From NCBI GenBank assembly GCA_008632985.1, contig QPGO01000140.1, positions 1-64,000 on the forward strand: a DNA stretch of 64,000 nucleotides. Direction: 5' to 3'. Under the pieces are notes generated by a model. That model searched no databases. It worked only from the letters and a program-made list of their open reading frames with translations, and was not told the origin of the DNA. Source of the stretch: Psammoneis japonica (taxonomy: Eukaryota). Positions within the stretch are counted from its first letter, which is position 1. Each line of letters begins with the position of its first letter. Both the position numbers and the translations under genes were made by a program. Positions 1-58,574 of the stretch are shown piece after piece.

Positions 1-1299
1 TCTCTGCATGCCACACCCCAATGATGGCAACCCATCATGTCTGCAGCTGATTTTGTTTGAGACATGCCCTCACAGCAGAGGAGCACATTGTTGTCTCTTT
101 GGTGGCTGGCCTCCTGTGTGATGAACAGCTCAGCTTGGTTGGCTCAGCACAGCTCACTGCAGCACTTCTTTGCACGTCAATTGATTGTCCTTGCCTGGTG
201 CCTTCTCTGGCTCTTGTCTTTGTCACTGGCAAACAGAGAAGAACAAAGAGTGCTTGGCAACAGACTCCATGTCAGCTCTGCATGCCACGCCACAATGACG
301 AGGGCAACTCATCATGTTTGCCACCCAAAAAGGAAGAAACTTGTGTGCACACAGGGCCAGCCAATCTCTGGGTCAGTGATCAAGAATGACCTTGGCGCTG
401 CTGCAGCAGTCAGTGGTTCGCAGCTGCAGACCAGCTGGTGTGTTGCATCACCTCATCACATTTTTTCCAGCTCATTTCTTGACTGGCAGCAGAGCTGGAA
501 CAAAAAATGAGAACTTCGCCAGTGCACTTGGGTGTCTTTTGGCAGGTTTGCCCCAAAAAGAAAGAGCTTGCTTTGTGCAGCTGCGCACTTTTTGTCTGGC
601 CCACCTGACTGTCACTGACTGACACATGTGGTGTGTGGCTGGTGCTGGTGGCAGAAACATGTCAGAGTGGATTTTGGACCCCAAGTCGAGTCTCAACTTG
701 ATGTGACATGCAAGATGCACAATCGGCAAGGGGCAGTCAATTTCATTTTTTCCAACACACACCTGCTTGTCCCAGTGCAGCAACAACTGTGCTGAACAAT
801 TGAGTGATGCACAATGCTGTTTGATTGCAGCACCCTCCACAGCCAGAGGGCTCCAGGCAATGCTGCTGCACACTTTGTTTTTGGGTGCGCTCAGAATCAT
901 GAAAATTGAGCTGGGAGCACTTTTGGGTGCACTCAGAATCATGAAAATTGAACAAACAACTCAAGAGATCTTTGCATGAAATTAAAAAAAAATGACAACA
1001 AAAATGACTCCTGGGGCAGCACCAGCTTGGACTTGTTGTTGATGCCATCACTGACAACAACAGAAACAAGAAAGGTGTTGTTGTGTTTTTGACTTTTGGC
1101 GCTCAAAGATTGAAAGAAAAGCTCCACAAATCTTTGCACATTGGAACATCCACAAGAGCAGTGCTCCTGGCATGGCGCCAACTCGGGCTTGTTGTGCACG
1201 CTGTCACCAACCGGCATCATGCAACGCGTCTGTTGAGTTGGTTTGCTTGACATTGTGCCAGCTCTTGCTTGTTCGTTCGTTTGATGCTTGTGGCTGCTG
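1..1299. other. TpA-depleted hypermutated domain 1 (open at window start)
   Basis: Only one TA found by eye in about 1.3 kb (983-984, in ATTAAAA). CG is also rare and TG/CA is abundant. TA returns abruptly at 1300 (tgtatgtacgtcgtacgtag). Confidence 0.9.
878..951 (+). repeat. Two-copy direct repeat, 42-bp period
   Basis: ttttgggtgcgctcagaatcatgaaaattga and ttttgggtgcactcagaatcatgaaaattga; the copies differ by CG versus CA. Confidence 0.85.
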
Positions 1300-1377
1300 T
1301 ATGTACGTCGTACGTAGACAAAACAAATGATATACTGTATATTCATGATTTATAACTTTTAATGCTTTGGTCCCTCC

Positions 1378-1397
1378 ACCACGTAGCTTTCTACGCA
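1378..1397. promoter_or_regulatory. Palindromic motif CGTAG-N4-CTACG upstream of tepsin
   Basis: ACCACGTAGCTTTCTACGCA; 19/20 identical to 62501-62520. Regulatory role is inferred. Confidence 0.5.
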
Positions 1398-1625
1398 AGA
1401 CCCAATGCCGAAGATTTGAACATATAAAAATATGTACAAGTATGTAGACAATCGAATATATCCGTTGAAACATACCGCTTTACCACGCACCACGCTTCTC
1501 TCGTCACCTCTCTCTCTGCATCGCTGCTCGCCATGACCCGATCGTAAACGAGTTGCCGTTGCCAACACCACTCTACTCTACTGTACCATCCATACTGTAC
1601 AATACCAACATACAGTAACATCACC

Positions 1626-8269: not shown

Positions 8270-10640
8270 CAACATTGATCAACACAAGTTTTACAGAAGG
8301 ACCAGGTTTTCCTTTGGAAGACGCAATGTAAACAAAAAACAAGCACTGAACACAGGAGAGCAATGGCGCAGTCTGCATTCTGCATTGGCATTCGAGGACT
8401 CGTGATTAATGGAGAATGCCAACGAAGTTCATTTTCATGCCGTGCTCATGCTCAAGAACTGTCCGGAATGAGTTGCGATGGGGGCACTCCGATGAGTGGT
8501 GTGCCTTTGTGGTCTCTCATTGGTGCCATTGGGCAATCATTCTTTGGTGCGATCGCGATTGCGGTTGGATGCCTCGCGGTTGTTGGCGACATGGGTCATG
8601 GGAAAATGACATTCTTCCTTTGTTGTGCTGTTCAGCTTGCATGGATTCCCTGCATTGCAGGTGTGATGGGTGTTGGGCAACAGACCACCAATCCTGAGAC
8701 ACAAACCTTTGTCCCAGCCGATCTCTCACCAACGGAGAGTGACGTTCGATTTGTCAGGTCCACGGGTGTGTCAACTGTCCTTGCTCACAGATTTGCTTTC
8801 ATCGAGTCTCTGTCATTTGCCACTTTTGGTCTCCTTGCCTGCCAAAGTGGCAAGCCACAAGACAGGTCAGCAGGACATTGTCATGGATGCCTTGTTGTGT
8901 GTGCAGTGCTGTCGTTCTGCTTGCCGGTTTTGCCCAGCTCACCCTTGGATCTTTCATTCTCGGCAACTGTCAGAGTGGCCCTCTGGACAACCCTGTGTTG
9001 GTTGCCATCTACACCATTTTCTTCCCTGAGATCAGTGCATTTGTTGGGCTTGTCCAGCTGTTCACTGGAGGAATGCGCATTTTCAGGTGAACTTGCCATG
9101 ACTGTGAATTGTGCATCACTTTGCTCATTTTTGCACGAAGCACACAAAAATCTCCATTTGACTTTTTGAAACAAATCGTCATCTTTGTTGTTGCCATGGT
9201 TTTTGTCAGCTCTCTTCTGCTGAAGGTGAGTTGATCGTCTCGTTCTCGTTGCGAATTGGATCTGCTGGAGTCAAGTCATTGCATGTCGTCTGCACACAAT
9301 TGCCACACAGACCTGAAGGCTTGGGTCCTTGATGGTTTTCCTCTGTGTGTTTGATTGTGTGCATCTTTGGAAGTTGGTTTGAGGCAAAATGATGATTGCC
9401 TGTCAAAGCAGTCCGTGGCTCCGATGGAAATGCACCACGATTGTCAGCAAACTTGCTTCTTGCATGTGCACTGAATGTTTGTAAATGTCCAATGTGGCAG
9501 TGAACCACAGCCAACCAATGCACTTTTTAGTGCAACAGTTGTTGTTTGATCAGGAACAAGATTGGGGCCAGCCCCTGCTTCATTTTTTTAAATGCACGCT
9601 GAAGGCCCTTTGATGTCGTGGACCAAGATGGTGTGCTTGACAGCACCACAAAGGGCAGCCTTTTTTTTTAGGTTGCAAGGTGGTTCAGACCACTTGAGTT
9701 GCTCACTGAGCATCTCACAACTGATCCCTCACAGGTTTGACACTCCTGTGGGTTGCTGGCTCACAATGTCAGCTGCACTCTCCATGTTCCACAGTGTTTG
9801 AAGATCTGTTTGTGTTGTTCGTTCATTTTGATCTTCTCACTGAGTGATGCTTTGCAACTCACACTCTTTTTTAGATTTTGATTTCCATTTTTTAACAGAT
9901 GACATGAATGGAGAAGTGCTTTGTTTGGAAGCTGTGCTGACACTTGCGTCTGCATTTGCTCTGGACAGCGACATTGAGGTGTCATTGTTGTGGCTCTTTG
10001 GGGGGCTGTTGAAGTTGCTTGCAAGAAGCCCATGCATTGGGTCAGATTGACAAGAGTTTGCTCAAGCTCCTCCAAGCATCTGTCATTCAAGTCACTTGGG
10101 CACAAAACATGCCACCCAATGTGCATTTCCCCATCTCACTCACGTCCCAGCAGCCAACGACACTCCTGTGCAACAGGTGCATCTCTGCGCTCAGTCGCAT
10201 TGACGGGGCTTTTTTGTGCTTTTCCAGGCACTCTGTCTGACACACAGAAAAGTGCATCAGCCCACAACCTCCATCAAGTCTCAGCAACAATGATGCTCCT
10301 GCTCAACTGAAGTGTCCATGAGCCACTTTGGTTGCTGAGCTTGACCTGTTCCCCAAGGAACACAAAAATGGCTGGCAAATGCTCCCTCCCACAACTCGAC
10401 ATGACTTTCCAAGATCCGGCATCAGTCATGATTTGTGCAAAGCCCATGACCATGTGTGCCCAATTGTTGGCGCAGGCATGATTCCCAACATCGAGAGTTG
10501 CTTTCATCATCAAAGTGGGGCTTGCCTCATGTGTTTTCCTGTTTCCTTGTCTGAAGCGGGACAGTCTCATTTGCCAAGGCCAAAAACCGCCACGACGGAG
10601 TGACGCATTTGCTGCAACTCCCGTCACAATCGGGTGCTGC
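8270..10640. other. TpA-depleted hypermutated domain 2
   Basis: Very few TA, mostly in TTTA/TAAA/TTAA (e.g. 8292, 8329, 8407, 9482, 9528, 9589, 9669, 9872, 9893). Many overlapping Tyr-free, Cys/His-rich spurious ORFs. Confidence 0.9.
8465..9090 (+). pseudogene. Decayed paralog of the membrane protein at 41482-42633
   Basis: GVPLWSLIGAIGQSFFGA...NPETQ...FAFIESL...YTIFFPEIS aligns with the intact gene. Frameshift near 8900 (TG slippage), truncated at both ends, Tyr->Cys/His and Arg->Cys/His changes. Confidence 0.92.
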
Positions 10641-15640: not shown

Positions 15641-15767
15641 AGAGATCGTAACTGTGAGCAGACCATGATGATTTTCATCCCGACAACAACTTGGAAGTGT
15701 CAGTAATAATCTGCAGTATGAGCGTGCGATTCAGGTCTATTTTTTGCTGCACACAGTACCTAATCGC

Positions 15768-15800
15768 TCTCTCTCTCTCTCTCTCTCTCTAGAGAGAGAG
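15768..15800. repeat. (CT)n microsatellite followed by (AG)5, forming a palindrome
   Basis: ...ctctctctctctctctctct|agagagagag. Confidence 0.9.
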
Positions 15801-21259: not shown

Positions 21260-24013
21260 ATGCTGTTGACCTTTACGTTGCTGTCATTGTTGCACTTTAC
21301 AAGCTCTGTCGCCGGCGAAGATCCGTGGCGCTTCCTAGTTCTTGCGGATTGGCATAGTGCTGAGCCGTTTGTGCAACACCCCATTCTCGACGTGAACGAT
21401 CCTCCACGTCAATCTGGAGGTGGTAAAAAGATCAAGACCTTCAAGCACATTAAAGAAAAGTATGGAGGCGAGTTAGTATTATTGCCAGGGGATGCCGAAA
21501 GCGGAAAGTGGTATCGACCAGAGCTACTCGAGGAACTCAACGTGAGCACACAGGAAGAAGCGGTTCGCGAAGCAGGGAGACGCTGCTACAATAGTATGAA
21601 GCTGGTGTTTAAGGAAGGGGGGTATTCCAAGTTGCTGATGGCAGTCGGCGATCATGAACTGGGTGGGTACGTTGAAACGAACGTGACGAGTCTCTCTTTT
21701 CGTCCAGTTCGCATATAACCGTGACTTGTGTTTGTACCACAGAAATATGTGGTTCTTGGGGCTTCCCAAAACTTCTTTGGTCCCAACCTTTCGACAAATC
21801 TTTTATGAGCAATTCAACAGAGACGATCAAGGAGAATTCCTATACCAAGATCCCATTGGAAGTAAGTGAAAAGGGAATCGGCTCGTTTTGAAATGATCTC
21901 ATGGTCTGACTCTTGCACTGTCGCCATGCTTGACTTTAGATGCCGACTCTCGCCCCTTTGGGACTATATTTCAAAGAACGTCCTACGCCTATAGGCACAA
22001 GAATATTCTGTTCGTCACGGTCGACGCTTTTACGTCTCGGCCCTACGATTATCATGACCTTGAGAGAGGTAGGGGTGGCGAAGGTACCATCACCTGTATT
22101 GTCACCGGCAAGCATCTGAGGTGGTTCAAGAGGTAAGAGCATCTTCTACTCATTTCTTTTTCATAAGCGGTTTGTGATTTCGTTCAATCTCTCACCTTCT
22201 GAACTTACGCGTTGTCAGTGTGTTGTCGGAGGCTAGAAGGGATCCTGGCATCAAACACATTATGGTGCAAACGCACTTACCAATTTTGCAGCCGGTTCGT
22301 AAAATCCGATGTACTGGTCAATACATGGACGGCGCAGAAAACTCAGACTTCTTCAAGGCTATGCGAGAGTACAACGTGGATGTCTATTGGGCTGGAGAAG
22401 TAAGTGACTAAACAATTATGGGAAATAGTTCAAGTGGTATCTCACCGATGCCTTTTTCGTTCAGGTACATGCCAACACTGCCACCAAAGACGACAAGTCA
22501 AACGTTCTCCAGGTTGTGTCTAGGTGAGGAAATTGTGTGAACAGTACTGCACTTGACCTTTTTGATGCGATATGAAACCAGCGTTTTCAACTCTTGGATG
22601 TTTTGATTTGTCTGTTTCGCAGAGGAAACGGTGCGCAGAATATTATAGTAGTAGACGTGTCCGACGAGATTATCAATATCACTCAGTACAACGACGTCGG
22701 GACTAAGCCATCGCATAACAGGAACTATGAATTCTACGGCCAGGTCATCGTTGATAAATCTGGCGAGACGACCAGAATTGAGTCAACTGGGTCTCTGGAA
22801 CTCTTGAATCGAAAACGTGCCATGTTGTATTTCCCTCTTGAAAACACGGTAAAACTGTCCGAGAATCCAGTCCTTGGTCTGTATCATGACGATAAGGACT
22901 CGACTCTGATGCAACGCAAGGTTACCATTCTCGGGACTGAATGTTGGGATTCTTTTCCCAACATGGGCGCTTATGGACGTACGTTTTCATCTCGCCTTTC
23001 ATTCTTTTACGTTTGCTTTCACTCACCTAGAGTCCCTTCGATTATGTAACAGAATCATACGATGCTCAGACTGGGCAAGTTGTTCTTCGAGAAGGAGTCA
23101 TTGGTAAAGCGGCCGAATTCAATTTGAGTAGTCGGGTTGCCATTGAAGCGTACGTGCTAGTTTCTGTAATGCTTGTGATGGTGATACGTTTTATGTATCG
23201 AATTCCCTTTCACTGTGTTTCTGACGATTGCCATTCTCCATGCGCATTGGACAGATTCGGTCCTCATAGCGGTGGTGTAAACGTTGCCTACGCTCTCTGG
23301 TTTAAGACGCAGCATGCGCATCGAAACCAGGTTCTTATTCATTACGGCAGTCATCGTAGCATAAAAGACGACAGATACAGGAACACCGTGTTTACGCTGT
23401 CACTTGATCGTGGCGGCGTTCTTGCACTTCATGCCAATAAGAATATGACTTTGACCGGGATTCCCGCCGATGAAGGTTTGAATATGGCAGACGACGAATG
23501 GCATCACGCGGCGATAGCAATGCCGAGAAATAGCTGCCGTCTGTCTGAGGTAAGGATGTACATTGACGGAAAAGAGGTCGAGACTCGAGTTGATGGAGTC
23601 GACAACTATTTGTTTCTTGACTTGGCGGGGTCAATAAGCGTTGGGGGGTTCGGCTATAGCAAACCTGCCACCTACGAGAAGATGCTAGAAAGGCATGAAG
23701 CCTACGTTGGCCTCATTGACGAGGTATATGTTTGGGCGGGTACTAGTTTGTCATCCGAGCAGGTTGCGGCACTTGCAGAGAAGCCATCCCTGCTATTTTC
23801 ACCTTGCATCAGCATTACACATGCGAAGGTGCTTCGTTCAAGAAAGTTAAATTGTCCAGGAGTCGGTGCAACGAAGAGTGCCTACAGTCCGACTCATGCA
23901 GGGGCTACGATATTACGCTGAACCAGCATGGCATGTCTATTTGCCGCATCTTTCAAGTCCAACCTCGGCGTGGCATTTGGAGCGATCGCCATGTCTGTGC
24001 GGTAAAGAAGTAG
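21260..24013 (+). CDS. Secreted metallophosphoesterase + LamG + one Cys-rich repeat; paralog B, multi-exon
   Basis: Same motifs (ADWH, PGD, VGDHE, WHHAAI, GLIDEVYVW). The C-terminal Cys repeat (23804-24013) is out of frame by one base at the T-run near 23797-23800. Confidence 0.78.
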
Positions 24014-31269: not shown

Positions 31270-31790
31270 TTTCACATTTCTGCCCGCATCCCAACCAATC
31301 CTCCCACGAGATCCATTCTTGCTTGAACTTTAAATCAGGACGGAACGGAAGACAGCTTGCTCGTTCATCACAGTCCTTCATTGCTTCCAAGTCATCCTTT
31401 TGCTTTACGAGTGTCATAGAGTCCTCTTGAGCATTCAAGGAGAGCGTTTGAGCCACTGCTTGAGCTTCTGAGAACGTCAAAGGTGTGCCGAGAAATCATC
31501 CCATCCACCTCTCCATTCCTTTTCCCACACCTCGCCCGCATTCTTGAGCAACTGGCCCTGCTGATGAGTTCCTGCGCATCAGTGAGAAATTTGCAAGAAA
31601 AAGGAACTTTTCACAGTGTGTGCAGATGATTGCCACAAGCAGTGCCCAACAATGGTGTGTTGCAATGCTGAGAAAGCCCTTGCATGCCTGGACAAGAGCA
31701 CTCTCAACTCTTCTCGTGACCCAAGCCTGCATCCACTGGCATTTTCCTTGCTTTCATGTGAAATGGAAACAAACTTCTTCATGTTGCTGC
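31270..31790 (-). pseudogene. Decayed gene with repeated W-x-x-W-x-D-(F/W)-L-G units
   Basis: Joining frames gives GLGSREE..CSCP / QLLKNAGEVWEKEWRGGWDDF(fs)LGTPLTFSEAQAVAQTL...LPFRPDLKFKQEWISWEDWLG, with frameshifts. Lies on the edge of domain 3. Confidence 0.6.
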
Positions 31791-32083
31791 TGCTTGACAT
31801 TTTCTTCTTCTCTGCAAGGCCATTGCTGCCACGCAGAGTTGTCTTGGGATTGCGCATGTGAAGGTTGTTGTTCCCAAAGGGCTGCTGCATGCCACAGACT
31901 TTCAATGAGGAGTCAGCATGGAGAAGCTGCGGGACAATTCAACAAACCCAAGTGACAGCTGCTTTGTCACAAGAAAGATCTGCCACAAAGGCAACACCAT
32001 GGGTGCAGGTCTCCCATGATGAAGAGTTTGATGAAACACTGCCACTCTCACTCTCTCTCTTTCTCTGTCTCTCTGTCTCTCTT

Positions 32084-32151
<68 letters not shown>

Positions 32152-35100: not shown

Positions 35101-37385
35101 TGGCAGAATGAGCAGAGCAAGAAAAGCTTTCAGCATTCTCAGATCTTGCGCAAAGAGTTGCACTGACAACAAAGCAAGAGCTGCCCTGCAACTCCCAGAG
35201 AAGAGAGCTTGTGACATGCTGTGGCATCTGGCTCTGCTTTCTGGCAAAGAGTCACAGCAGGAGATTTGCTGGAGGAAGATTGCAGGTGCAGCACATGCAA
35301 TTGTGTCTGGTGTGGCATTGGAAAAGATGGGTTGGCAAAGCAACAAAGTTTTTCAATGCAATGAATGTTGGAGCTGCTCGTGGTGGTGAGGACGAGAGTG
35401 CTTTGTTGTTGCCAGCAGAGAGTTCCACAGAAAGCAATGGTCACAGTCATGCTTGCTTCAAATTTTTGTCAGATGTTGCCACATTTGAAATGCCAGGGCC
35501 CAAGCTGGCAGACAGCAGCTTCATCCACAATGAGCATCATTTGGTCAGAAGTGTTCTCTGCCATGGCTGTGGCAAAAAACACTCCTTTTGGACAGAGACC
35601 ATTGCACACACTGATGTTGCCACTGCACCCCTGAGATGCTAAAAAAAAGAGTGCATCACAAGCCAAAAAAAAAAAAACAGGGCACAAAAATGCTGCTCAA
35701 CCTGAGCAGAAAATTTGCTTGTTCAAAGCCATTGCAAGCCACAAAGAAGGACAAACCTTCAGCTGCCTCCATTGCAACAGCACTTGCTCCTGCTGTGCTG
35801 TGTGCCAAGCTCCAAATTGGATGAGCTGTTGGCTTGAGAAACACTGCTGTTTGCTGCAATCTCTCATGCCCTGTGGTCAACAACAAAAAGGTGCTCTTTG
35901 TCCTGATCAAGGAACATCCTTTTGAGTGTCCCTGGGAGCATGTGCTGCACATCAGTGTTGCCAGCCCCCCCCTCATGCACACATCTCAGGCAGACCAAAC
36001 CCAACTTCACTTGCATTGTCACAGCTGCATTGAAAACTCCAGATGACATTTGTCTCTGCACTCATGATGCTCAAGCAAAGTTGCTTGGCCATGAGATGAA
36101 TCATGCCTGGGTGTCAAAATTGATGCAAAGTTTGTTGCGCACTGCTCTTGCAAGCAGCATCTGGCACACAGCAGCCAGTGTGAGCAATCAGCGATGGTGT
36201 GTCACCAAACTGCACTGGCTGTTGTTTTTTGCCAAGTGCAGCACTTCAAAACTGCTGCCATGAGTCCTGGGTGTTTGCAGGGTTGAGCACTTTGCCCAGC
36301 CACATGCCACATTGGGGCACTCTTGGATTGTCCTTTCACTCCCGCATCACACACAATTTGTGATCATGTGTGGTGACTGACACCATGCATGCACCCACAT
36401 TGTTGTTTCTGCATTTGAGGATGCAAGACTCTGGCAGGTGAAAACCATGTCACACACGGTTTGCTCCAAACAATGCCCTCCCAGCAGCTCAAAGACATTT
36501 GGCAGCACCAGCACATGACAGAGCTGCGGCACAAGTGCCAATGGCCCCTTGCCATTGCAACATGCATTGCAGCCACACAGCAAAGCAGCATGGCACCACA
36601 CAGATGCAACAGTTGTGCACTTCCATCAGGAGGCTGACCCCTGCTGCATTTTCCACCTGCTTTCTTTGGCGCATGTCTGGGAGAGGAGATGTTCACTGGA
36701 CAGTTTTTCCCACAATCACTGTTGCTCTTGTCAACCACAAACAGCATCGCCTGGCAGACTTTGATGTTTGGGTGAAGAGCTGGAGAATGAAAAGCACTTT
36801 GCAGCATCTTTGGTTGCGCGCGCCAGCATCTCGAAGAATGCTGCCAGGCAAGGCAAGATGATGCATCCCTTGCTGAGACACTCCATTTTAAAAATGATTT
36901 TAAAACAGCCAGATCATGCTCATGTGGCAGGCCCAATCTTCTTTCAGATGGTTTGACACAAGCTTGTCAACTGCTGCTTGGACATGTGGCCAAGGGTCTG
37001 CACAAGGTTTGAGAAGGGGCAGAGCTGCTCCAGCGCTGAGCACTTTTTGGTCATCCTGAAGTTGCAAAAGAAGAGCTCCAACAACAGGCAGCCAACAAAG
37101 AGCACACATTTGATGGTGGAGAAGAGATCGTCTTCCTGATCTCTTTGACAAAGATTGCAACAGAAGTTGTGCAAGGTTTTTTTTGGTGGTGATGCCAGGC
37201 GGTGGCTGCTCGGGCCCACCAAACAAATCGAGAGGGTTTGTCCGAAGTCGCACTCTCTGTTTTGTGATTGGTCAGAGTGATAGATCCTGAGAAGGAAGGG
37301 TTCTCGTTGTCAATCAAAAGGCCTTCGGACAAACTGGGTTGCGGGGGGGCCTTTTTCTCCAGAGGTCACCCCGCGCAAGGCAGTC
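31420..37385. other. TpA-depleted hypermutated domain 3 (strongest; CpG also largely lost)
   Basis: About nine TA found by eye in about 5.9 kb (32813, 33723, 34350, 34590, 34977, 35640, 36889, 36901, 37281). Dense six-frame spurious ORFs lacking Tyr. Confidence 0.92.
32045..32146. repeat. Interrupted (CT)n microsatellite
   Basis: ctctcactctctctctttctctgtctctctgtctct...ctctctc. Confidence 0.95.
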
Positions 37386-37836
37386 ATGTAGAATGCATGC
37401 AGTAACCCGTTGAGGGGCTCCCCGTCTTTGCACGGGGAAGCCCGATTTTTTATAGGGAGATCGCCCCGTCATGTCCATCCACAGGCCTTGCCTTCATTCA
37501 AGAGACCACAGACCAGAACACGCAGAGATGATAAAACAGAAAACACAAAAAAGAAACCAAGAAACGCAATGCACTCATCTGCTGTTGCACTACGAACTGT
37601 TCGACAGCACGAACACTCTCATTTTTTGGTAAGCATCGATTTACGCTCATTTTGCTGACATTTGTCTTTCTTTGGAGAGCCTTAAAGGCATTATGGCTTC
37701 GCGCCTTTCATTTTCACCATTTGCCTTTGAAGAGAATCTCAGAAATTCTTCTTCTTTTTGTGCTTGCTGTTTTAGGGACCTCATTTGCTTTGACTACCCG
37801 CTACCAAGGAGTGTATAACTCAGCACTTAAAGAGTC

Positions 37837-38976
37837 ATGTCGAGAATCTTGAGTCTGTTTCTGATCTCTCTGTCGGCTGCCAGTAGCGTGGATATTCAAC
37901 CCGACGCGTTGTATGCGAAACTCGTCAACAATGAGCTCGACTTGGTACTTGATGTTCGAACCCAAGCTGAGTGGGACTTGGGTCACATTGAAGGCGCAAC
38001 TTTTGCTGAATCGCTTCATAATCAAACAAAGCTCCCATCGATCATTGACGGGTGTCAAGGAGAGTGCCGCGAGATTGTCGTGTACTGTAATTCAGGCAAT
38101 CGTGCGAGTCTTGCCATTAAGAAACTGATGGACGAATTCGGATTCAAAGGGAATATTTCGAATGGATTCGGCGTGAAGCAGTGGACTGCAGCTGGATACA
38201 GCTTGATTAATGGGACATCGGTTGATCCTCCTTGCGCTGGGACCGACAATGTCTCTGGATGCAGCAAGAACCCGCCACCGCCACGCTTGAAAGTTTCGAA
38301 AGCAATACTCGATCCAGTGCCAGCCGTAGCTGGGAAGGGCGTTGCTGCCAAAGTTATTGTAAGGGAGAGTGGATCAGGTGGTAGCACTGCAACTTTCGAT
38401 TGGGGTGGTGGTGCCAAGCATACGGTATCAGTCAGACCAGAAGATTCCGGTGTGGCTGTCAGTCGGCACGTATACAGGAATCCTGGCATCTACAAGGTTC
38501 GCGTGAAGGTAAACGATAAAACCGGACGCATCAAGAGTTCACCCAGTAAATTGGTCTTTGTCGTTGCAAGCAATGGCGAAAAGGCTAGAATTATTGGGCA
38601 AGCGGGAGATATTTTTCTCAATGCCATGGTTAAGCATCGCGCGTCAGGCGGCTTTGACGGGTTTGTCAAAGCGAGAATCAAAGACAGATACCATCTACAT
38701 TTTCAGTCCACCGTCATTGAGCAACTGATGTTCTTTTCTGATTGGGTCTTTGCTACCGGCAGAGGCGTAACTCGAAAAGGATTAGAAGTTGGGTGGGACC
38801 TTGTTCTGTCGGATGGGGAGTTGAAGACAGGAAATATCAAGGATGTTGTCCGTCTTGTGATCTTCAAGGCTGGAACGCGTTCGGAAGTTCTCTACGATAG
38901 TCAACCGAGGACTGCTCGCTATTCAAGGCCAACCCGCGAATTAGCGTCAGGCTTCGTTAAACTGAAATATTCTTGA
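37837..38976 (+). CDS. Secreted rhodanese-domain + PKD-like domain protein, intronless
   Basis: Signal peptide; LDVRTQAEWDLGHIEGA, VVYCNSGNRA and GVKQW (rhodanese); FDWGGG...HVYRNPGIYKVRVKVND (PKD-like). Confidence 0.8.
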   Translation: MSRILSLFLISLSAASSVDIQPDALYAKLVNNELDLVLDVRTQAEWDLGHIEGATFAESLHNQTKLPSIIDGCQGECREIVVYCNSGNRASLAIKKLMDEFGFKGNISNGFGVKQWTAAGYSLINGTSVDPPCAGTDNVSGCSKNPPPPRLKVSKAILDPVPAVAGKGVAAKVIVRESGSGGSTATFDWGGGAKHTVSVRPEDSGVAVSRHVYRNPGIYKVRVKVNDKTGRIKSSPSKLVFVVASNGEKARIIGQAGDIFLNAMVKHRASGGFDGFVKARIKDRYHLHFQSTVIEQLMFFSDWVFATGRGVTRKGLEVGWDLVLSDGELKTGNIKDVVRLVIFKAGTRSEVLYDSQPRTARYSRPTRELASGFVKLKYS

Positions 38977-39625
38977 GAATGAGGACGTTTTCCGCCGGGC
39001 GGAGCTTTCCGGTTGCATGTCACTAGAGAAATCAATTATGCGCCTGAAAAGAAGATTGTGACATCTCTACTACCGGTACACATCTTTTGAGAGTAAATTA
39101 GATCTAGCTGATATTGATTCTTGCTCATGACATTCTCTTGATATCTTTGTGTAGCAAGCGCACAGTCTCAGATATTTATCTAATCCCTCTGAAGCAAGTG
39201 TTGGTGTATACTTCGAATGTGACCGATTGAACGTGCGATTCTCCAGTTAAATGTTCTTTTGTGGATGCTTGGGGCTGGAAACATTGGAGTGACGAGACGG
39301 CGAAGTTCAATTTGATGCTTCTCTCTGCTCGTTCGCGACGTGGGCACATTTCTCACGTCAATGCATGTGTGATGGATTTACAATGGAGAACATTTAACGA
39401 GGACAGATTGGAAAGTCCAGTAGATTAGCTATTGGTAGACCTGGCTGTAGTTCCCGCTCACAACTTGGTCGCATGATGATGCCGTTGCCCTACGGATGGG
39501 GCCTAACCTAGTCGCCCGCATGCTGCAAAAGAAGCCGTTCTCGATACTTGCCATGCATGTGGGCGCCTTGTATCAGACGACTCTTGAAAAAGAAATAGAT
39601 AAAGAAAAACATACTACGCGACGGA

Positions 39626-41164
39626 TCAGAAGCAAGCAGGGCGACCCCGACATTCTGCCTCTCTGTTCTTTTCGTTGTCCCGGAACTCTTCAAGCTTGGT
39701 CTCCCAAGAAGCTGTACGGTCAAAGAAAACCCCAAATGGCCGATAGTTGTGGTAAGGCACGGCGCCTCTCTTCCACCGACGTACAAATTTGTCATGAATA
39801 TTCCGCATTGACTTGAGCTCATTACCAGTGTAATTAAGAATGAGATTGTTCAATTCCAGTGGGTCCTTCCTTTTGCGATATAGTTCCTCAGATGGCTTCA
39901 AGCCATCTCCAGCCCAAGGCCAATGAATGTACTTGTTGAACTTTGTCACCACCCCGAGGCTGTGGACCTGCCCAGGACCCCACACATTTATCAGTGGTAG
40001 AGCTTTATGGGTGGTGTTTGATGGATTATCATATAGGGGCAACAAACTCTTCCCATCCATTCCTTTGGGATGTTTAACTCCAGCCAGGTCCATCAAGGTT
40101 GGAGCGAAATCGACGTTGCCCGTCAACGATTTGCACCTCAACTGCTTACCGCTGTTGTTGTGCCTGGGATCATACATTATCAGCGGTACTCGAGATGCTT
40201 CTTCATAGGGTAATACCTTCCCTCCAAATCCGTGCGAGCCTGAAAAGTAGCCATTATCCGAAGAAAAGATAATCACCGTATTGTTTGCCACTCCGTGCTT
40301 CTCGAGTGCGTCTCGTACCATACCTATCGCAACGTCCACCGCATAGACTTGCTGGTGGTACTTCGCCATGACGTTGTCATACCGAGTGTCATAACCCCAT
40401 TCGTCAAAAAACTGTAAATACTGCCTTCCCTGTCGAGCCTGCTCGGCAAAGTGCTCCCCTGCCTGGCGCCCAAAGTTGCCCGGCTTTGTGAATTTCTTTC
40501 CCTTATAGACTTCATCATCCAGTGGATCGGGATAGGGCGGTCGGTGGGGTGCCTTGAAGCTGATAGACAGACAAAAAGGCTTATTCACAGCCACAGCTTC
40601 CTCGACAAAATCGGCACCAAACGCCCCGTACGCACGCGTTGAGTGAGGGTATTTCTCAGCGTAGGCTTTCATTGATTCGTTCTCCTCCGTTAGATAACTT
40701 GTCTGCCCATCGCTTGCGCCCCACTTGTCAAAGTCATTTTCTGGAACATGGCCCCATTCGTCAGCTCTGTCTGCCACCTTGAACCCGATCTTTCCGGCCA
40801 TGGCGACAAAATAGCCCGCCCGACGCAGCAACACCGGATAGGACCGCTTCCAGTGCTTTCGCAGCAATGCCATGGTGCCATGCATGAAATTACAACCGGT
40901 ACGAAACTCAAACTTTCCTGTCATTATGTTTGCCCTACTGGCCATACAGATTGCCGTCGTGACGTAATGGTTATCAAAGACCATGCCGTCCCGTGCGAGA
41001 GCATCCATGTTGGGTGTTTGAACGTCATCATTTCCGTAGGCACCCACCGAAAATGTGGACTGGTCGTCGGTAAGGAAAAAGACAATGTTTGGGCGCTCGT
41101 CGGCATCAGCAATGACGATCAGGTGTGATAATACGAATAATACAGACGTGAGACGGAGCTTCAT
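39626..41164 (-). CDS. Secreted formylglycine-type (S1) sulfatase, intronless
   Basis: RPNIVFFLTDDQ, catalytic CxAxR (CMASRANIMTG), PH, SSDNG, GKVLPYEEASRVPLI and ELY..DPLELNNL. Confidence 0.92.
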   Translation of the reverse strand: MKLRLTSVLFVLSHLIVIADADERPNIVFFLTDDQSTFSVGAYGNDDVQTPNMDALARDGMVFDNHYVTTAICMASRANIMTGKFEFRTGCNFMHGTMALLRKHWKRSYPVLLRRAGYFVAMAGKIGFKVADRADEWGHVPENDFDKWGASDGQTSYLTEENESMKAYAEKYPHSTRAYGAFGADFVEEAVAVNKPFCLSISFKAPHRPPYPDPLDDEVYKGKKFTKPGNFGRQAGEHFAEQARQGRQYLQFFDEWGYDTRYDNVMAKYHQQVYAVDVAIGMVRDALEKHGVANNTVIIFSSDNGYFSGSHGFGGKVLPYEEASRVPLIMYDPRHNNSGKQLRCKSLTGNVDFAPTLMDLAGVKHPKGMDGKSLLPLYDNPSNTTHKALPLINVWGPGQVHSLGVVTKFNKYIHWPWAGDGLKPSEELYRKRKDPLELNNLILNYTGNELKSMRNIHDKFVRRWKRGAVPYHNYRPFGVFFDRTASWETKLEEFRDNEKNREAECRGRPACF

Positions 41165-41481
41165 CGCTTCGATGCACCGTGCATGGGCATATTTCCAATT
41201 TTGTGGAGTTTCTTATGAGAAACAAAATGCGCTTTTGATGACCCGTGGATGACCCGACGCATGACTTTTGGTCGTAGAGGCATATGAAAAGATAACTAAC
41301 AGCGTAGGGACCTGCCTAGAATAGGACCACAAGTTCAAGTTGATGACCGCACGTCGGAGGGAAATTCTGAATATATTTGTTATTCATTCATGAAGTTATC
41401 ATTTTCATCTCAACGGTCGCGCTGCTGACACCATTTTACCATTTTCCGCATTCGAGTTCAACCCAGGAGAAGAAGTCGACC

Positions 41482-42633
41482 ATGGCAACGACTGAAGGTG
41501 ACAAGGCACAGAATAACTATGTCGACCTTATTGGCAGCCAGCGTCTTATTGCTGACATGCGTCAATACGGCGGGTTAGTTCTTGCGCTAGGAATTTGCGC
41601 AATGTTTGGTGCGTTGGCTGGCGTGGCGAGTGGAGTGGGTCGCGATGGTGGCAATCCTACGAGCGGAGTTCCATTGTGGTCTCTGATTGGAGCTGTTTGT
41701 CAGTCGTTCTTTGGAGCTGTCGCAATTCTGGTTGGCTACTTAGCTGTAGTAGGAGATACTGGTCACAGGCGCTTGACATTTTTTCTCTGCGGGGCCATTC
41801 AACTTTCCTGGATTCCTTACGTCACCGGCATGACAGCGATTGGAAAACAAGCTGCGAATCCTGAGACCCAGAAATTCATTCCAGATTACCTGGATCCCAC
41901 CAATAGCGAAATACGGTTCGTTGGTGCAATGGGCATATTAACGGTCCTTGTCCATGGCTTCGCTTTTATTGGGTCCCTGGCTTTTGTATCGTTTGGCCTC
42001 CTTGCCTACCAGACTGACAGGCACCATGAAAGGTCAGCTGGATACTTTCGCAGTAGGCTCATCGCATACAGTTTAGCTGTCTTTGTGGCAGGCTGTACTC
42101 AGCTTTCTCTTGGAGCCTTTATTCTTGAAAAGTACGGCAGTGGCGCTCTTGATGAAGCGATCAATGTTGCTGTTTACACAATATTCTTCCCTGAAATCTC
42201 GGTTGCTGTGGGATTCATTCAGCTACTGACAGGAGGAATGGGCATAGTAAGGTACTTTGGGAGCGAATATAGCTCATCAGATTGGACTTATCAGGGATTG
42301 TGTTTCTTCATGTGGCTCATGATGATGATTCTCCAACTCATGGTGCAAGTTTCCTTCGCACCTGGCGGTCAATATGCAGCCGCGGCACCATCACGCGCTT
42401 GTGTATTCTTGGGGTTTTCACTTATGCCTGCCTATCTTGACTACAAAATGCGCAACACTCCGATCGTTTTCGAACCAAGTTATTATGGTAATTTTACTGA
42501 ACATGCCCCGATTGCGGACTCAGATAAAGCAGAAAGAGGATACGAGGCTCAGGCTGCAGAGGATATTGATAGAGAGACGGGAGAAGGTGAAGCTACGCGG
42601 GTGAAGCACGAAACCTTCGTGGATACAACATAA
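41482..42633 (+). CDS. Polytopic membrane protein of unknown function
   Basis: Intact ORF from ATG 41482 with about 7-8 hydrophobic segments; paralog of the pseudogene at 8465-9090. Confidence 0.85.
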   Translation: MATTEGDKAQNNYVDLIGSQRLIADMRQYGGLVLALGICAMFGALAGVASGVGRDGGNPTSGVPLWSLIGAVCQSFFGAVAILVGYLAVVGDTGHRRLTFFLCGAIQLSWIPYVTGMTAIGKQAANPETQKFIPDYLDPTNSEIRFVGAMGILTVLVHGFAFIGSLAFVSFGLLAYQTDRHHERSAGYFRSRLIAYSLAVFVAGCTQLSLGAFILEKYGSGALDEAINVAVYTIFFPEISVAVGFIQLLTGGMGIVRYFGSEYSSSDWTYQGLCFFMWLMMMILQLMVQVSFAPGGQYAAAAPSRACVFLGFSLMPAYLDYKMRNTPIVFEPSYYGNFTEHAPIADSDKAERGYEAQAAEDIDRETGEGEATRVKHETFVDTT

Positions 42634-53532: not shown

Positions 53533-53879
53533 TCTGAATTGCAATACAACCTGTGTTGTGGTTGTTTCCTTGTAACACTCTTGAGTTGCGATAGTCATCG
53601 TTCGTTGGCGGGAAAAGCATGGAATCACGGAACAGGTTATGAGGTCGGAGGGAGAAATGAACAAATACAGTAGTATCCATCCTTGAGGGTTTTCAAAAAA
53701 ATTTACGCAACCCACGCAACACATTGCATCGCTCACTCACACATTCGATGCCCATTGGCAAGTGCTTGTTCTCTTGATTCGTTTCTCCATTCTCCAGTTC
53801 CGGCTTTTATCACGCGTGTTTTGTTGCTGGCCACTGGGATCATGCTGGAGGCAGACATGTTTATGTCCCTGGCTGGAGG

Positions 53880-55270
53880 CAACACTGGCTGGCTGAACAA
53901 CAACTGCCCAAGACTGCCAGACAGAGTTGGAGTTTTTGGTCTCTTTGCCTTGGTCCAGAGAGGAAAATTCCAATGATCAACCCCACTCTCAAGGATGGCA
54001 ACAAGGTGACATTTGGGGGTGAGGAAGCCACTGTTGTGCATGTTGTTGGCGGGCATGCATGGGGTCACGTTTGTGCGCCACTTTTCTGGGCAGGCGTGAT
54101 GGCATTCGTGTTGGCAAGAGATTCCTTGCTTGTGTGCGATGGAGTGTCTCGGGCGCCTGTTTGAGGGCACTGCCACTCAGTTTTGGAAAAGTCTGTGGGG
54201 TCTGTGTGGCCTTCTGGGCAACACATCAGCACGCTGGCAGGAATTTTGATCTGGCTTTGTGAGTTGAAAAGGCTCTGAGGAGAGCTGCTGACAGTCCCAA
54301 GCTTGATGATGATGGGGAGAATGAGAAGAAGACCAATCAGTTTCTGCAGATTCAGGTGCAGGTGCACTTGCCAAGGTGTGCAAAGCAAAAGACAGGTTTT
54401 AAAAGCTCTGCTGCAGGGAGCTTTTTTGTGACACTCCTTTTTGCAACAAAGTGAGCAGCTGCACTTTGAGCAACATGTTGTGGCTCCCCCCTTGTTCTTG
54501 CCAAGGAAAAAGCAAAAACACTGTGCTGCCAGAGAGACTGCGGAGCTTGGCTGTCATCATGCCCCACTCCATGTTGAGTGTGCACTGGCAAAAGTGGCTG
54601 CACTTTGCTTGTTGCTGTGCAGAGTGCCCCATCGTCTGTGAACAAGTTTCCAAAAGTGCCAGCACCCTTGTGCCAAGGACACTGGCTCCCAAGATGTTGG
54701 TGAAAAAATGCACAAATTCAGATTTGGCAGCAGTGCAGCTGGTTGTTGCTCAGCTGGATCTGTTTGAGTTCACGCAATGCACTGGACTTGTCTGGGATGG
54801 TTCCAGCAAAGTTGTTTTCACATCCAGTGAAAGCATCTCCAAAAAGAGCAAATGAAAATTGTCATCAGGAATGGCTGAGTTTGTGCAGTTGTTCCAGGAC
54901 AATTCAAGGTGCTTGAGCTGCAACACGCTCAATGCCAGATGCAGCAAGAAGGACAAATGTGCAGGGAAACACAAGCAGGAAGAAATGAGCAAGATGAGCA
55001 TGCATCCTTGAGAGATGAAAGATCAAGGCACAGCAGGCTTGCCACATCATTCGCACGCCCAACAAACGGCATTCTTCAAGGTCTGGAAGAGGGCCAATGA
55101 ATGACACAGTGTTGCGGGACAACAAAGTCAAAGAAATCCCAGGAAGTGTGCATTCTTTGGTGGGAAAAGCCAGCCCCAGAATGTTGGTTCACGTGCTGCT
55201 TTTGTTGGGGGGGCTTGTCAAGAGGATCATGCCACAACATGAGAACTTTCAAGCCTTTGTCAAATGAAAG
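53880..55270 (-). pseudogene. Decayed leucine-rich-repeat (LxxLxLxxNxLxGxIP-type) gene fragments
   Basis: Across frames: LKVLMLWH, SFIGPLPDL, LKHLELSWNN..SAIPDD, LEMLSLD(fs)ENNFAGTIPDKSSALRELKQIQLSNNQL, TLSGSLGQLLF; several frameshifts. Confidence 0.55.
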
Positions 55271-55939
55271 TGGAGGCCTCTGCTGCTTCGTGCAGTGTCT
55301 GAGGACTCTCATGAATGCAAAAAGCTTGATTGCAAGCTTTGTCTGAGAACATCATTGTGTGATGGTCGCATTGGTGGTGCGCCATTGACAGCTGTCATGG
55401 TTGCTGGTGGCGGGACTTTTTCTCTTTTTTCTAGATTCAAAGAGAGATGGCATCAGAGCCATTTGCCTGATCCAAAATTCTGGAGTGACCAACTGAAAAC
55501 ATGGACACTGGAGAAGAAACCAGAAATCAATGGTGGCTTGTTTGTGCTTCCAGCAGGGTCCTTGCTGTTTCACCTCACACATGAGACAGAAAACAAAACA
55601 GGACAAAAGAAAATGAGTCAAGATGATGGAGAAAGAATTTCGAAATTCCGGAGCTTGTCGGCGGCAGCTTTTTTCCGTTTTGCATGGCTGCCGCAAGGCG
55701 TGCACAGGAATTGGCAACAACTTTGAAACTGCCAAGTTCCAACGAACTTTCTACATGCAGCGACGTGGTGTTAATTCTGCTGAGATGCACAAACAGTGAC
55801 AGTGATTGAGAAATTTTGCAACGGTCACAACACAGCAAAATCTCTGCAGCACCAGCTCCGCTGCACTCTGCTGCAGACAGAGAGAGACCACACACGAAAT
55901 CTTGCGCTCGATTCTTCCAGATTTTTGATCACAACTGGT

Positions 55940-56229
55940 CGTCTTGCACGATGTGTTGTTGTTTGCCAAGCCAGAAGCCGCAATCTCCAAGGATGGCTTG
56001 CCCTTCCTCTGGATTGAGAGCTCGCTCTTGTTTGGCATTCCACAACTCATTTTGCTTGATGGTGTGTTGTCTCTCTTTTTTGACTCATCGTCTTGCATGA
56101 TGTGCTTGTTGTTTGCCAAGCCTGAGAGTGCCGGAGTCGCCAAGGATGGATCGCCCCTTCTCTGGATGACAGAGACCTTGCTCTCACTTGGCATTCCACA
56201 ACTCATTTTGCTTGATGGCGTGTTGTCTC
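55940..56229 (+). repeat. Diverged two-copy tandem repeat, about 150-bp period
   Basis: cgtcttgca(c/t)gatgtg..ttgttgtttgccaagcc...caaggatgg...ttggcattccacaactcattttgcttgatgg(t/c)gtgttgtctc at 55940-56073 and 56089-56229. Confidence 0.85.
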
Positions 56230-56859
56230 AAATGGTGGAGCAGGTGTTGCCAGTTGAGTCCGGAGGTCGGGGCAAATCGAACGCATCTCTCCGGCCTTGA
56301 GTCCATGTCACTCTCGTGCCTTTGAGTGCAGGAAGTTGCCCGCTCACTTGGTCAGTCAAGACCATGGCTGTTGAAAGAGACAGCAAGTGTTCGTCTGCAA
56401 AGCAGCAAGAGCTCGCCGAGCAGATCACGCCGTTGATGGAACGCTGAATCGGGGTTTCGCCATGCCGGCAACACGGCAACACGGCAAGCCTTCACTCGCA
56501 GGGAGTGTTGATTTAGAATGTGGTCGACTTGCAAAATTTCTTGTTGTCTCCACATTGCGTCCCCCCTTTTTTCTTTTTTGCAGTGATGTTTCACTCTGAA
56601 GATGCGAAAAAGCTTGAGCGCCATCTTTTGATGGCACTCTTGAGGCAACATTGCCCTGCGCGACCGATTTGTCTTTGTTGGCATGTTTTTCATCCCGCAC
56701 ACACATCAATGACTGCGATGGCGGTTGCAGCATGTTCTCGGTCCTCGTGCTCCATTGTCACGTCAAACGCGAGGATTGTGCATGAGATTTTTGTCACGCA
56801 TCGCACTTTTGCATCTTGTTGGACAAGGTGTCACAAAAACACTTTGTTTCGACAGAGTC

Positions 56860-58574
56860 TGTCAGAAGAATTTGTCCAAGGAATGGACAGGTGCATTGTC
56901 CTCAATTGGACAGAGTGGTTGACCGTTCATGGCACAACAACAACACAACCTGGAAGTTGCTCGCATGCACCCAAAGACCCTGTTTGGACTCGTGTGGTTT
57001 GTCCACCGACCCAATGGACCGGTCAATTGCCTTGCCTCACAAATGCTTGAGCTCCGTTTGAGTGTCTTCCGACATGTCAGGAGAAAAGGTGCTGTCGTCT
57101 TCCCAAAGTTCCTTGATGCATCATCCAACGAGTCCCAGACACCCGCTGACAAACCCGTGGCGCAGGCGGCTCTGGCGGTGGCATTTTCGAGACCAATTGG
57201 GCGAAGGACACTGGGTCCCAAGATGTTGGCCAAGAATTGCACAAATTCAGATTTGGCGGACATGCTGCCATCCACACGAAGTTCTGAAACAGGAGCTCCC
57301 GAGTCAGCAGAGACAGGACCAATCTTTCACTCCAATCATGCGTCCTTCAGCTGGCATGCCATCATCCAAATGTGCCTGAATCGGACAACTGTGTGTGAAC
57401 ATGCCCACTTGCAGAGCTTGCATCATTGAACACACAGGAATGAGAACAGCAAAATCGAGTGTTTCGATTGCTTTGCGACCACAACAATGAGCCACGACAG
57501 CGCCCAGCATTGGATCTTTACATTGGGGATTGGATTTGCCCAACAAAGCCATGTCTGATGATGAATCATTCAGCAGGTCAAGCACATGTGAGAAAAGGTT
57601 CAACTTCTTTGCAGCTTCAGAGGTGAATGACGCCAAGGGTGAGCACAATGTGCGATTTGCCGTCACAATGATGTGGCTCCCATTGCAAAGCAGTTTGTTC
57701 GTTGGATTGCCTTTCATTTCTTCAGGCATCTCTGCTGTCATCAATTCATCAATGATCAAATCGAAGAGCAAAAAATCCAGAACCATGCACTCAAGGATGG
57801 AGGGGTTGTGCACTTCACGCAGAAAGGCTTGTCTGGCAAAATCAAAAAGCTGTGGCTCTTCAATGTTGGCTAAAAACTCACATGTCCCACTGCCGATGGC
57901 CACTCTGCGCCAATTCCCATGAGAGCCATAGACCGGATCATCAATCGTGCTGTTGACAAACTGAAACGGAGTCTTCCAGACGAAGGCGAGAACAACAAGA
58001 GCACGGCAGGCTCTGACTTTCGCGGCGTTTCACCACACCTGCAATTCAGCCAAATTGTCAATTGATTTCTCTCTTCTGCAGCTCGAAATGGCTCTCGCAG
58101 GCTGTGGCCATGGCATGGCACTGCAGTGTCGATTTTTGGTGAAGGGAGCACCTCGTGCCGTGTGACGCAGCCACGTTGAATGACGTTCACGTTGGAAAAC
58201 TGACCAGGAAGAGCGATGCCCACTGAATTCACGAAGCACCGGCAAACAAGAAGCCAGTCAGACGTTTCGCTTCCTCTCATGCCTGCGCCAACAGTGGCAG
58301 CATCCCCCCTTGGGACGCAGCTGGAAGGGCACTCTTCTCCTGACGATGCAAGGAGAGGTTCTTGCGTGGCTTCCTTGATGCAAATCTCTGCAGTGTTGCA
58401 ATGAACAGGCCAGGGAAACAGCAGAGGCACTGCTTGGTCCAACTGTAAGGTGTTGTTGGTGATTGTTTCAATCAACTCGGCATCATCGCATTTAGCGTTG
58501 TGGTGACTGCGTTTACAGTTTACAGTGATGTCGCCTTGACGTCTGGCGCGATCTATTATTTCCAAAAAGCTCAA
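56860..58574 (-). pseudogene. Decayed unidentified coding sequence
   Basis: ORFs 57870-58574, 57304-57903 and 56862-57275 read as protein-like (EEPQLFDFARQAFLREV...) but contain no Tyr and change frame. Confidence 0.35.

Follow-up and report, generated by a model that had tools for sequence, protein, structure and literature searches.

Near-complete loss of TpA from four sharply bounded DNA domains in a diatom-like genome points to a probable TpA-specific hypermutation of presumably silent DNA

The window analyzed here is a stretch of 64 kb (contig QPGO01000140.1, positions 1 to 64,000; 48% G+C, 2057 TpA in total, a single N at 63892), in which the dinucleotide TpA (TA) is nearly erased from four kilobase-scale domains and TpG (TG) and CpA (CA) are enriched instead. 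The pattern is probably best explained by a TpA hypermutation of silent DNA, acting in place and accompanied by a slower decay of CpG (CG), with an adenine deaminase as the favored candidate agent. An original prediction, made from the same DNA, had proposed a candidate silencing system working as the reverse of fungal repeat-induced point mutation (RIP). The core of that proposal was right, but a precedent exists in a different supergroup: the main text of a preprint on the alga Bigelowiella natans describes a TpA-specific hypermutation of integrated DNA from nucleocytoplasmic large DNA viruses (NCLDV) and virophages (Mettrop et al., bioRxiv 2026, 10.64898/2026.01.13.699255). That the system serves silencing is something we infer.

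The ratio of observed to expected counts (o/e) of TA in 500-bp windows was 0.00-0.17 in the four domains and mostly 0.3-1.0 elsewhere. The domain limits were set from the TA-free runs, which slightly revised the edges first predicted; domain 2 was started at 8408, since TAs are present at 8292, 8329, and 8407. The domains cover 13,978 bp when pooled, and domain 4 (53863-58445) is given in two halves:

1-1299, no strand: domain 1, truncated by the window start; 1 TA against 53 expected; CG o/e 0.24, TG 1.90, CA 1.88
8408-10640, no strand: domain 2; 7 TA against 91 expected; CG o/e 0.40
31418-37280, no strand: domain 3, the largest and most decayed; 8 TA against 238 expected; CG o/e 0.12, TG 1.78, CA 1.85
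53863-55500, no strand: left half of domain 4; TA o/e 0.02, CG o/e 0.22
55501-58445, no strand: right half of domain 4; TA o/e 0.03, CG o/e 0.66, CpG being mostly retained

Over the pooled domains, 24 TA sites were found where about 570 are expected (o/e 0.03), compared with 2030 sites outside (o/e 0.59). CG was lowered to 258 sites (o/e 0.30), compared with 2811 sites outside (o/e 0.99). In the meantime, the o/e of CA was 1.80 in the domains and 1.18 outside, and that of TG was 1.71 and 1.17, respectively. The G+C content was nearly unchanged (49.4% in the domains and 47.7% outside), because the losses of TA and CG pull it in opposite directions. The Poisson log10 probabilities of the TA deficit were -21, -29, -89, and -67 for domains 1 to 4. 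The longest TA-free runs inside the domains reached 1396, 1249, 1032, and 1005 bp, compared with 288 bp for the longest run lying wholly outside. All seven domain edges within the window were steps confined to one 100-bp bin; at the right edge of domain 1, no TA occurred across the last 316 bp and 13 TAs followed within the next 100 bp. The predicted restriction to sharply bounded, gene-free domains in which TpA is close to exhaustion was thus observed. The depletion of CpG, which had been little stressed, is real as well, and uneven, its o/e ranging from the lowest value in domain 3 to the highest in the right half of domain 4.

The domains contained no intact gene, in agreement with the prediction. 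No Pfam match above the cut-off was obtained among 119 stop-to-stop open reading frames (ORFs) of at least 70 amino acids in the domains. Codon periodicity was lacking, with a median period-3 signal of 0.78 compared with 2.25 outside; a faint residual signal (1.0-2.8) was left in the right half of domain 4. Long ORFs in the domains were at about chance level, because TGA is the sole stop codon remaining. When the domains were compared with one another, the four were unrelated and only short internal repeats were found. No long terminal repeats or terminal inverted repeats were found at the edges of domains 3 and 4, and no transfer RNA (tRNA) or Rfam features were found as possible boundary elements. 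The domain ORFs at 57307-58029, 34110-34781, and 36367-36966 had no relatives among viral contigs, and the first of these, in domain 4, had none in the protein database either. In a tblastn search of 189 non-domain ORFs against the domains, the sole match was the paralogue of domain 2, on which the direction of change was read:

8351-9129, forward strand: pseudogene, a frameshifted and decayed paralogue of the membrane-protein gene listed next, found by phmmer and tblastn
41479-42633, forward strand: intact membrane-protein paralogue, an ORF of 384 amino acids with a full-length match to 69 of 69 family members (best E 5e-105)

A phmmer search with the longest domain-2 ORF (8279-9166) returned 69 relatives (best E 6.7e-27), which form a family of multi-pass membrane proteins of approximately 350 amino acids from marine protists without a Pfam model. 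When these relatives were searched against the window by tblastn, domain 2 was matched in frame 2 (8351-8989) and then in frame 1 (8815-9129); therefore, the domain-2 copy is frameshifted. The intact paralogue lies 33 kb away and has a TA o/e of 0.55-0.73. It has no database representative above 50% identity and is nearer to the domain-2 copy than any database member is, the two sharing 57% protein identity (87/153) and 65% DNA identity over 627 aligned columns. A search of metagenome contigs with a five-sequence alignment as the query found no environmental copies of the family, and a protein atlas queried with the intact paralogue returned uninformative scores of 0.85 or less.

To read the changes at the codon level, 13 of the 69 phmmer relatives were aligned, and a column was taken as tyrosine-conserved when at least 40% of the homologues had tyrosine. 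At the eight such columns, the domain-2 copy had cysteine (TGC or TGT) five times, histidine (CAC or CAT) twice, leucine once, and tyrosine never, and the pseudogene ORF is devoid of tyrosine altogether. Conserved residues other than tyrosine were kept in 43 of 63 cases, compared with 0 of 7 for tyrosine (Fisher p = 7e-4). At three arginine-conserved columns, one arginine (AGG) was kept and the others read histidine (CAT) and cysteine (TGC), which, judged from the codons, are the outcomes expected from CGY. The nucleotide alignment gave the same picture. Where the intact copy has TA (26 sites), domain 2 reads TG (8), CA (5), TA (1), and other dinucleotides (12), and the 24 CG sites of the intact copy included 7 that had become TG, 3 that had become CA, and 3 still CG; CA and TG were exchanged for each other at 17 sites. 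From the tyrosine columns and the paralogue alignment, we regard the predicted direction, TA to TG or CA on both strands, as established for domain 2, together with a change of CG to TG or CA. A natively TA-free source for domain 2 was considered as a separate candidate and is largely refuted by the same columns and by the alignment with a TA-normal paralogue.

A mass balance was then calculated for each domain, with the o/e values outside the domains taken as the ancestral expectation. The deficits of TA (504) and CG (583) add up to 1087 sites, and the excess of TG plus CA amounts to 1014. For domains 1 to 4 separately, the sums of deficit and excess were 107/117, 155/162, 526/473, and 300/263. 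The excess was divided nearly equally between TG and CA in every domain (62/55, 78/84, 235/238, and 131/132). The order of TG and CA along the domains gave runs-test z values from -1.97 to +1.14, which resembled those of controls and showed no strong strand clustering. The sites behave independently, with both strands alike; a conversion in long, processive single-strand tracts is unlikely in view of the range of z. Furthermore, the window's own outside DNA was converted in silico until its TA and CG matched those observed in the domains. The simulated o/e values of CA and TG were 1.81 and 1.79, compared with the observed 1.80 and 1.71, and the 14 unfitted dinucleotides were correlated with the simulated conversion at r = 0.94 versus 0.77 for unconverted DNA. 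AT was lower and GC higher in the domains than the simulation predicted, a residual that is not fully explained. The decay of CpG by itself leaves the deficit of 504 TA sites unaccounted for, and RIP runs in the opposite direction; neither is sufficient alone, as the original prediction had held.

The equality of TG and CA also bears on the possibility that the RNA or complementary DNA (cDNA) of a retroelement, a virus, or a retrocopy was hyper-edited by an ADAR-like enzyme with a preference for a 5' U and was inserted afterwards, so that the edges are insertion junctions. Steps at seven of seven boundaries would fit such junctions, the domain-2 copy could be a retrocopy, its parent gene being intronless in the window, and ADAR does prefer U on the 5' side of the edited A (10.64898/2026.01.13.699255). 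However, a single-stranded intermediate would give one kind of excess only, and not the equal TG and CA excess found in each of the four domains. Domain 2 has its left edge approximately 45 bp into the pseudogene reading frame, within copied coding sequence instead of at its end. Moreover, the mutations of B. natans arose in place during mutation accumulation, according to the preprint's main text. Editing before integration is very improbable on these grounds, and the same-locus changes described below add to them. A hypermutation acting on the resident domains remains the preferred explanation.

TpA was lost faster than CpG, and independently of it, because the right half of domain 4 combines a TA o/e of 0.03 with a CG o/e of 0.66. 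Judged by its CpG decay, the left half of this domain appears older than the right half. The few TAs that escaped share a context. Nineteen of the 24 stand in TTTA or TAAA, compared with 300 of 2033 outside (p = 5e-12); assuming 528 ancestral TAs, survival is estimated at approximately 24% in this context versus 1.1%, a protection of about 22-fold. A palindromic TA persists only if the A on each strand escapes, and a property of the duplex is therefore simpler than a single-strand motif; the escape may reflect, for example, stiff A-tract DNA or nucleosome-free poly(dA:dT).

The neighboring dinucleotides were informative about a further candidate that the original prediction had listed, in which methylated chromatin recruits a Pol eta-like polymerase and the repair synthesis is error-prone. 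Pol eta makes A-to-G changes at WA motifs in somatic hypermutation. WA includes AA, yet AA/TT was not depleted (o/e 1.25 in the domains versus 1.13-1.14 outside) and AT was only mildly lower (0.78 versus 0.93), the loss being specific to TpA and about 97% complete. In the mutation-accumulation lines of B. natans, 230 of 231 viral-region mutations were A to G or T to C and the GC-biased ones were all at TpA, a spectrum that is exclusively TpA in the main text of the preprint (10.64898/2026.01.13.699255). The polymerase is thus disfavored, and we give it hardly any credence.

The same locus was inspected in public sequencing data. Run X1 contained 79% of the 31-mers sampled from 30500-38500, and its contigs carry domain 3 in a likewise TA-free form at approximately 99.5% identity (about 0.5% differences). 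The k-mer depth was 54-61 over domain 3 and 54-58 in the flanks; such a depth cannot be taken as a copy number, but nothing in it hints at a repeat present in many copies. Between the window and X1, 25 of 4995 bases differed inside domain 3, compared with at most 2 of 3610 in the flanks (p = 1e-4), in a count that excludes record 5, a contig 90-95% alike that adjoins a microsatellite. The 33 difference events listed included four adjacent double changes between CA and TG and seven single steps between CG and TG or CA, the latter running both ways (four from CG to TG/CA and three from TG/CA to CG); no TA to TG/CA difference in either sense was among them. A flip between CA and TG requires TA or CG as the intermediate, and only 42 CpGs are left in domain 3, so that double hits at CpG should be rare. 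The flips may be read as ordinary C-to-T or G-to-A mutations which made a TA that was quickly resolved to TG or CA. If they passed through TA, the TA process was therefore active after the sequences of the window and X1 diverged. The flips thus suggest recent activity and, being at one and the same locus, imply a continued change in place that tells against editing before integration.

The X1 contigs are also relevant to the explanation that no mutational process took place, the domains being either foreign DNA natively free of TA and CG or an artefact of assembly or base calling on modified DNA. Domains 1, 3, and 4 are without an identifiable source, as such foreign DNA might be, and the window and X1 differ by small insertions and deletions of a kind typical of assembly error. 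Nevertheless, domain 2 comes from a normal, tyrosine-containing family with a TA-normal intact paralogue 33 kb off, and the mass balance is satisfied in four of four domains. The recurrence of TA-free sequence in the X1 contigs argues against an artefact, and the differences between CG and TG/CA run in both directions among the events listed. We consider the absence of any process extremely unlikely and hypermutation of the domains the far better account.

One part of the locus differed in structure:

30858-31340, no strand: variable zone bordering domain 3 on its left side, where X1 has alternative joints that skip 61-379 bp, loose ends, and some contigs of about half depth (30-38 compared with approximately 58)

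The zone may reflect haplotypes or copies that differ in structure at this edge. Run X2 matched only 29500-29832, 30142-30871, and 39424-39500, and run X3 matched nothing; these results have no bearing on expression.

Short repeats were also noted inside the domains. Domain 4 carries a tandem duplication of approximately 150 bp at 55956-56229, with copies 90-95% alike, and a 72-nt repeat at 54668-54739 and 57197-57268, 2.5 kb apart and 83% alike; the copies of these internal repeats differ partly by changes between CG and TG and by one flip between TG and CA. Domain 3 holds an imperfect (CT)n microsatellite of approximately 130 bp (32029-32160), at which the X1 contigs break, and a short GA-rich inverted partner of it lies about 150 bp downstream (32288-32311).

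On the basis of these results, we propose the following sequence of events. The domains would be transcriptionally dead DNA of a diatom-like nuclear genome, comprising at least one decayed gene duplicate and otherwise unrecognizable wreckage, on which two context-specific transition processes act in place. The dominant and faster one would change TpA to TpG or CpA, equally on the two strands, until about 97% of TpA is gone, mainly sparing the TpA next to a T-tract or an A-tract. The slower one would be the ordinary decay of CpG to TpG or CpA, as expected if the domains carry 5-methylcytosine (5mC) like silent diatom DNA; by this analogy, the domains may be silent, cytosine-methylated chromatin. 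Since both processes end at step-like edges, the targeting follows a discrete unit and not a gradient, and this unit could be a silenced chromatin domain or a segment recognized by sequence guidance. The domains may then represent the long-term end state of the TpA-specific hypermutation that was measured in the B. natans lines. The model reaches beyond the observed pattern in taking the change to occur in place, in tying it to chromatin, and in naming an enzyme for it.

As for the chemistry, adenine could be converted to inosine, which is read as G, by an ADAT2/TadA-type deaminase that is recruited to silent chromatin and attacks the 5'-TA-3' context in DNA that is duplex or has opened transiently. 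In tRNA, the A34 that these enzymes naturally deaminate always follows U33 as far as is known, a counterpart of the TpA context. We favor this chemistry tentatively, at somewhat less than even chances. A thymine-side reaction with the same domain restriction is conceivable as well, in which a TET/JBP-type dioxygenase oxidizes the T of TpA to 5-hydroxymethyluracil (5hmU) or 5-formyluracil (5fU), which pairs with G and leads to T-to-C changes. Its predicted outcome is identical, and the strand symmetry, the tyrosine columns, the alignment, and the simulation fit it equally well. As background to this route, 5hmU of dinoflagellates is biased to TpA/TpC, and base J occurs at TpA in the telomere repeats of trypanosomes; the literature search turned up neither statement. 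In dinoflagellates, which also belong to the stramenopile-alveolate-rhizarian (SAR) group, TET/JBP hydroxylases make a repeat-enriched 5hmU that silences transposons (PMC11572971). However, no TET/JBP-type enzyme is encoded within the window. We know of no 5hmU in diatoms, and 5hmU is weakly mutagenic compared with inosine, so that a conversion of 97% would need a long exposure. Thymine oxidation is therefore judged unlikely, and adenine deamination remains the chemistry that we put first.

The genes between the domains bear on what is targeted. The window is eukaryotic and intron-poor and encodes SRP54, an Integrator-1 fragment, TCTP, LamG and PKD proteins, and a sulfatase, of which the following matter here:

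39626-41164, reverse strand: single-exon, bacterial-like sulfatase of 512 amino acids, the named best matches being Verrucomicrobia and Planctomycetota at 58-67% identity
17168-18646, reverse strand: LamG/concanavalin-like ORF with ordinary TA content
23124-23921, forward strand: second LamG/concanavalin-like ORF, also with ordinary TA content
26788-27720, forward strand: third such ORF, the three lying within 11 kb, again with ordinary TA content
28856-29752, reverse strand: SRP54, N and G domains
28114-28815, reverse strand: SRP54, M domain, the two ORFs fitting a gene with one short intron

The sulfatase had no match above 70% identity among 5.8 billion proteins and no eukaryotic-looking self-hit, and by these matches is likely a horizontal transfer candidate. 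It seems that foreign origin is not what triggers the process, because this bacterial-like gene keeps a normal TA content. Nor does duplication by itself seem to act as a trigger, because the three LamG ORFs are TA-normal and the four domains are mutually unrelated. The predicted targeting of duplicated or repeated DNA is unproven: domain 2 is a decayed paralogue, but the LamG ORFs are TA-normal and the depth of domain 3 in X1 is like that of its flanks.

The N and G domains of SRP54 were 72-76% identical to the best database matches. The matches with an organism name were diatoms (among them Thalassiosira, Epithemia, Seminavis, Fistulifera, Discostella, Stephanodiscus, and Amphiprora), except two rows of Vicia at 50% identity and one truncated name beginning with "Flore", in a search restricted to proteins of 523-2000 amino acids, which favors the long diatom forms. 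The host is accordingly treated as a diatom-like stramenopile. The end of the window (63740-64000, 261 bp) has no TA, yet it has 18 CG and ordinary counts of TG and CA, and is probably a low-TA coding sequence rather than a fifth domain.

Several points weigh against the explanation favored here. The silent or foreign status of domains 1, 3, and 4 is assumed, and the single target that could be traced has a host-type gene as its paralogue, which misfits the foreign-DNA framing of the preprint; the sulfatase gene, for its part, was spared by the hypermutation. The window-X1 events listed cover 40 of the 60 differences. The excess divergence of domain 3 is partly expected, since the flanks code for protein and the domain is free of constraint. 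X1 is possibly not independent of the assembly's own sample, although the sequences of the window and X1 are not identical. The context of the residual TAs could instead reflect how new TAs arise. Sequence alone cannot separate adenine deamination from a thymine-side lesion, the outcomes being complementary, and the methylation and the chromatin state of the domains are what we infer. No candidate enzyme is encoded within the 64-kb window, as the original prediction had noted in stating that the enzyme is not identifiable there.

Beyond the window, one may speculate that TpA erasure is an old system of genome defense or heterochromatin maintenance across SAR (Rhizaria, stramenopiles, and perhaps wider). 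It would be physically coupled to cytosine methylation and would drive the two palindromic pyrimidine-purine steps, TpA and CpG, of durably silenced DNA into TpG/CpA by one dual A/C DNA deaminase or one targeting machinery, with viruses and silenced host paralogues both among its targets. Since the TpA steps stiffened by flanking A/T tracts escape, the substrate that it reads would be the duplex. We hold this wider reading to be rather doubtful, with perhaps a modest chance of being correct. Programmed A:T-to-G:C hypermutation of resident nuclear DNA was until now the subject of one 2026 preprint on one rhizarian alga; if it is true of a diatom-like stramenopile, it is not the curiosity of a single species and may be widespread in marine protists. 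The saturated end state is easy to screen for in any assembly, as kilobase-sized TA-free islands that are sharply bounded and have gained TG and CA in balance. If the process is true, it may become testable where genetic tools exist, model diatoms having methylome maps and genome editing by clustered regularly interspaced short palindromic repeats (CRISPR). The enzyme could then be found, and as a natural adenine editor of DNA with specificity for TpA it would attract interest. Such islands hide their own source, with tyrosine turned into cysteine or histidine and the stop codons TAA and TAG vanishing; they bias annotation and distort estimates of mutation spectra and GC equilibrium.

The process was finally compared with known systems. 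Fungal RIP is, like it, a regional and context-specific transition hypermutation which wrecks silent or duplicated DNA. In Neurospora, RIP is coupled to cytosine methylation. RIP makes TpA from CpA, whereas TpA is destroyed here and CpA/TpG are made, and unlike in RIP the G+C content does not fall (49.4% versus 47.7% outside). The decay of CpG in diatoms, which depends on DNMT5-made 5mC, resembles the CpG part of the pattern (o/e 0.12-0.66 with a gain of TpG/CpA), and in diatoms it is restricted to DNA that is silent. The 5mC of Phaeodactylum tricornutum occurs only in transposons and silent genes, where it co-localizes with trimethylated lysines 9 and 27 of histone H3 (H3K9me3 and H3K27me3) (PMC12344493). 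However, the decay of 5mC cannot remove TpA. Hyper-editing by APOBEC3 or ADAR likewise leaves context-specific transition clusters of the deaminase type, on parasitic nucleic acids. These enzymes act on single-stranded cDNA or double-stranded RNA, before or outside integration and in strand-asymmetric tracts, whereas the changes here are strand-symmetric, not strongly clustered, and apparently continuing at a resident locus. The 5hmU of dinoflagellates, made by TET/JBP homologues, is an enzymatic modification of A:T pairs that is enriched in repeats, tied to silencing, and found in a SAR lineage. It is an epigenetic mark, and no mutational footprint or link to TpA erosion is reported for it.

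A literature search for TpA depletion or A-to-G hypermutation in diatoms, or for a genome defense involving TpA, TpG, or CpA, found only the B. natans preprint. Its authors propose an ADAT2-like DNA adenine deaminase and liken the process to RIP (10.64898/2026.01.13.699255). Both cases share the change of TpA to TpG/CpA on both strands in discrete regions, with the rest of the DNA normal, and both have TpA-poor, CpA+TpG-rich clusters whose genes are mostly without annotation; the B. natans genome has 124 such clusters of 1-kb windows (10.64898/2026.01.13.699255). Nevertheless, the two differ in several respects. The organism is another one, as SRP54 is closest to diatoms here, the proteins of the window return no self-hit from the databases (the proteome is absent from those collections), and the TA frequency outside the domains is 4.1% versus 6.0%. 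The domains are saturated (TA o/e 0.03), compared with a Rho(TpA) of 0.45 in the NCLDV region. CpG is co-depleted here, and the term "CpG" is absent from the preprint's text; the escape of TpA next to T/A-tracts is not seen in its main text; and one target here is the paralogue of a host-type gene. The rate in B. natans was measured in mutation-accumulation lines, with a local de novo mutation rate raised approximately 1000-fold (10.64898/2026.01.13.699255), whereas the sign of it here is indirect, a divergence between two sources of 0.50% in domain 3 and of at most 0.06% in the flanks, with the four flips between CA and TG. To what the preprint's main text describes, the present window adds a stramenopile host, saturation to an o/e of 0.03 with single-bin edges, a coupled CpG decay that proceeds at another pace, a victim that is a host-type paralogue, the escape at T/A-tracts, and the flips between CA and TG as a readout of activity. 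By its sequence context and its regional restriction, we would place the process described here together with the hypermutation of B. natans.

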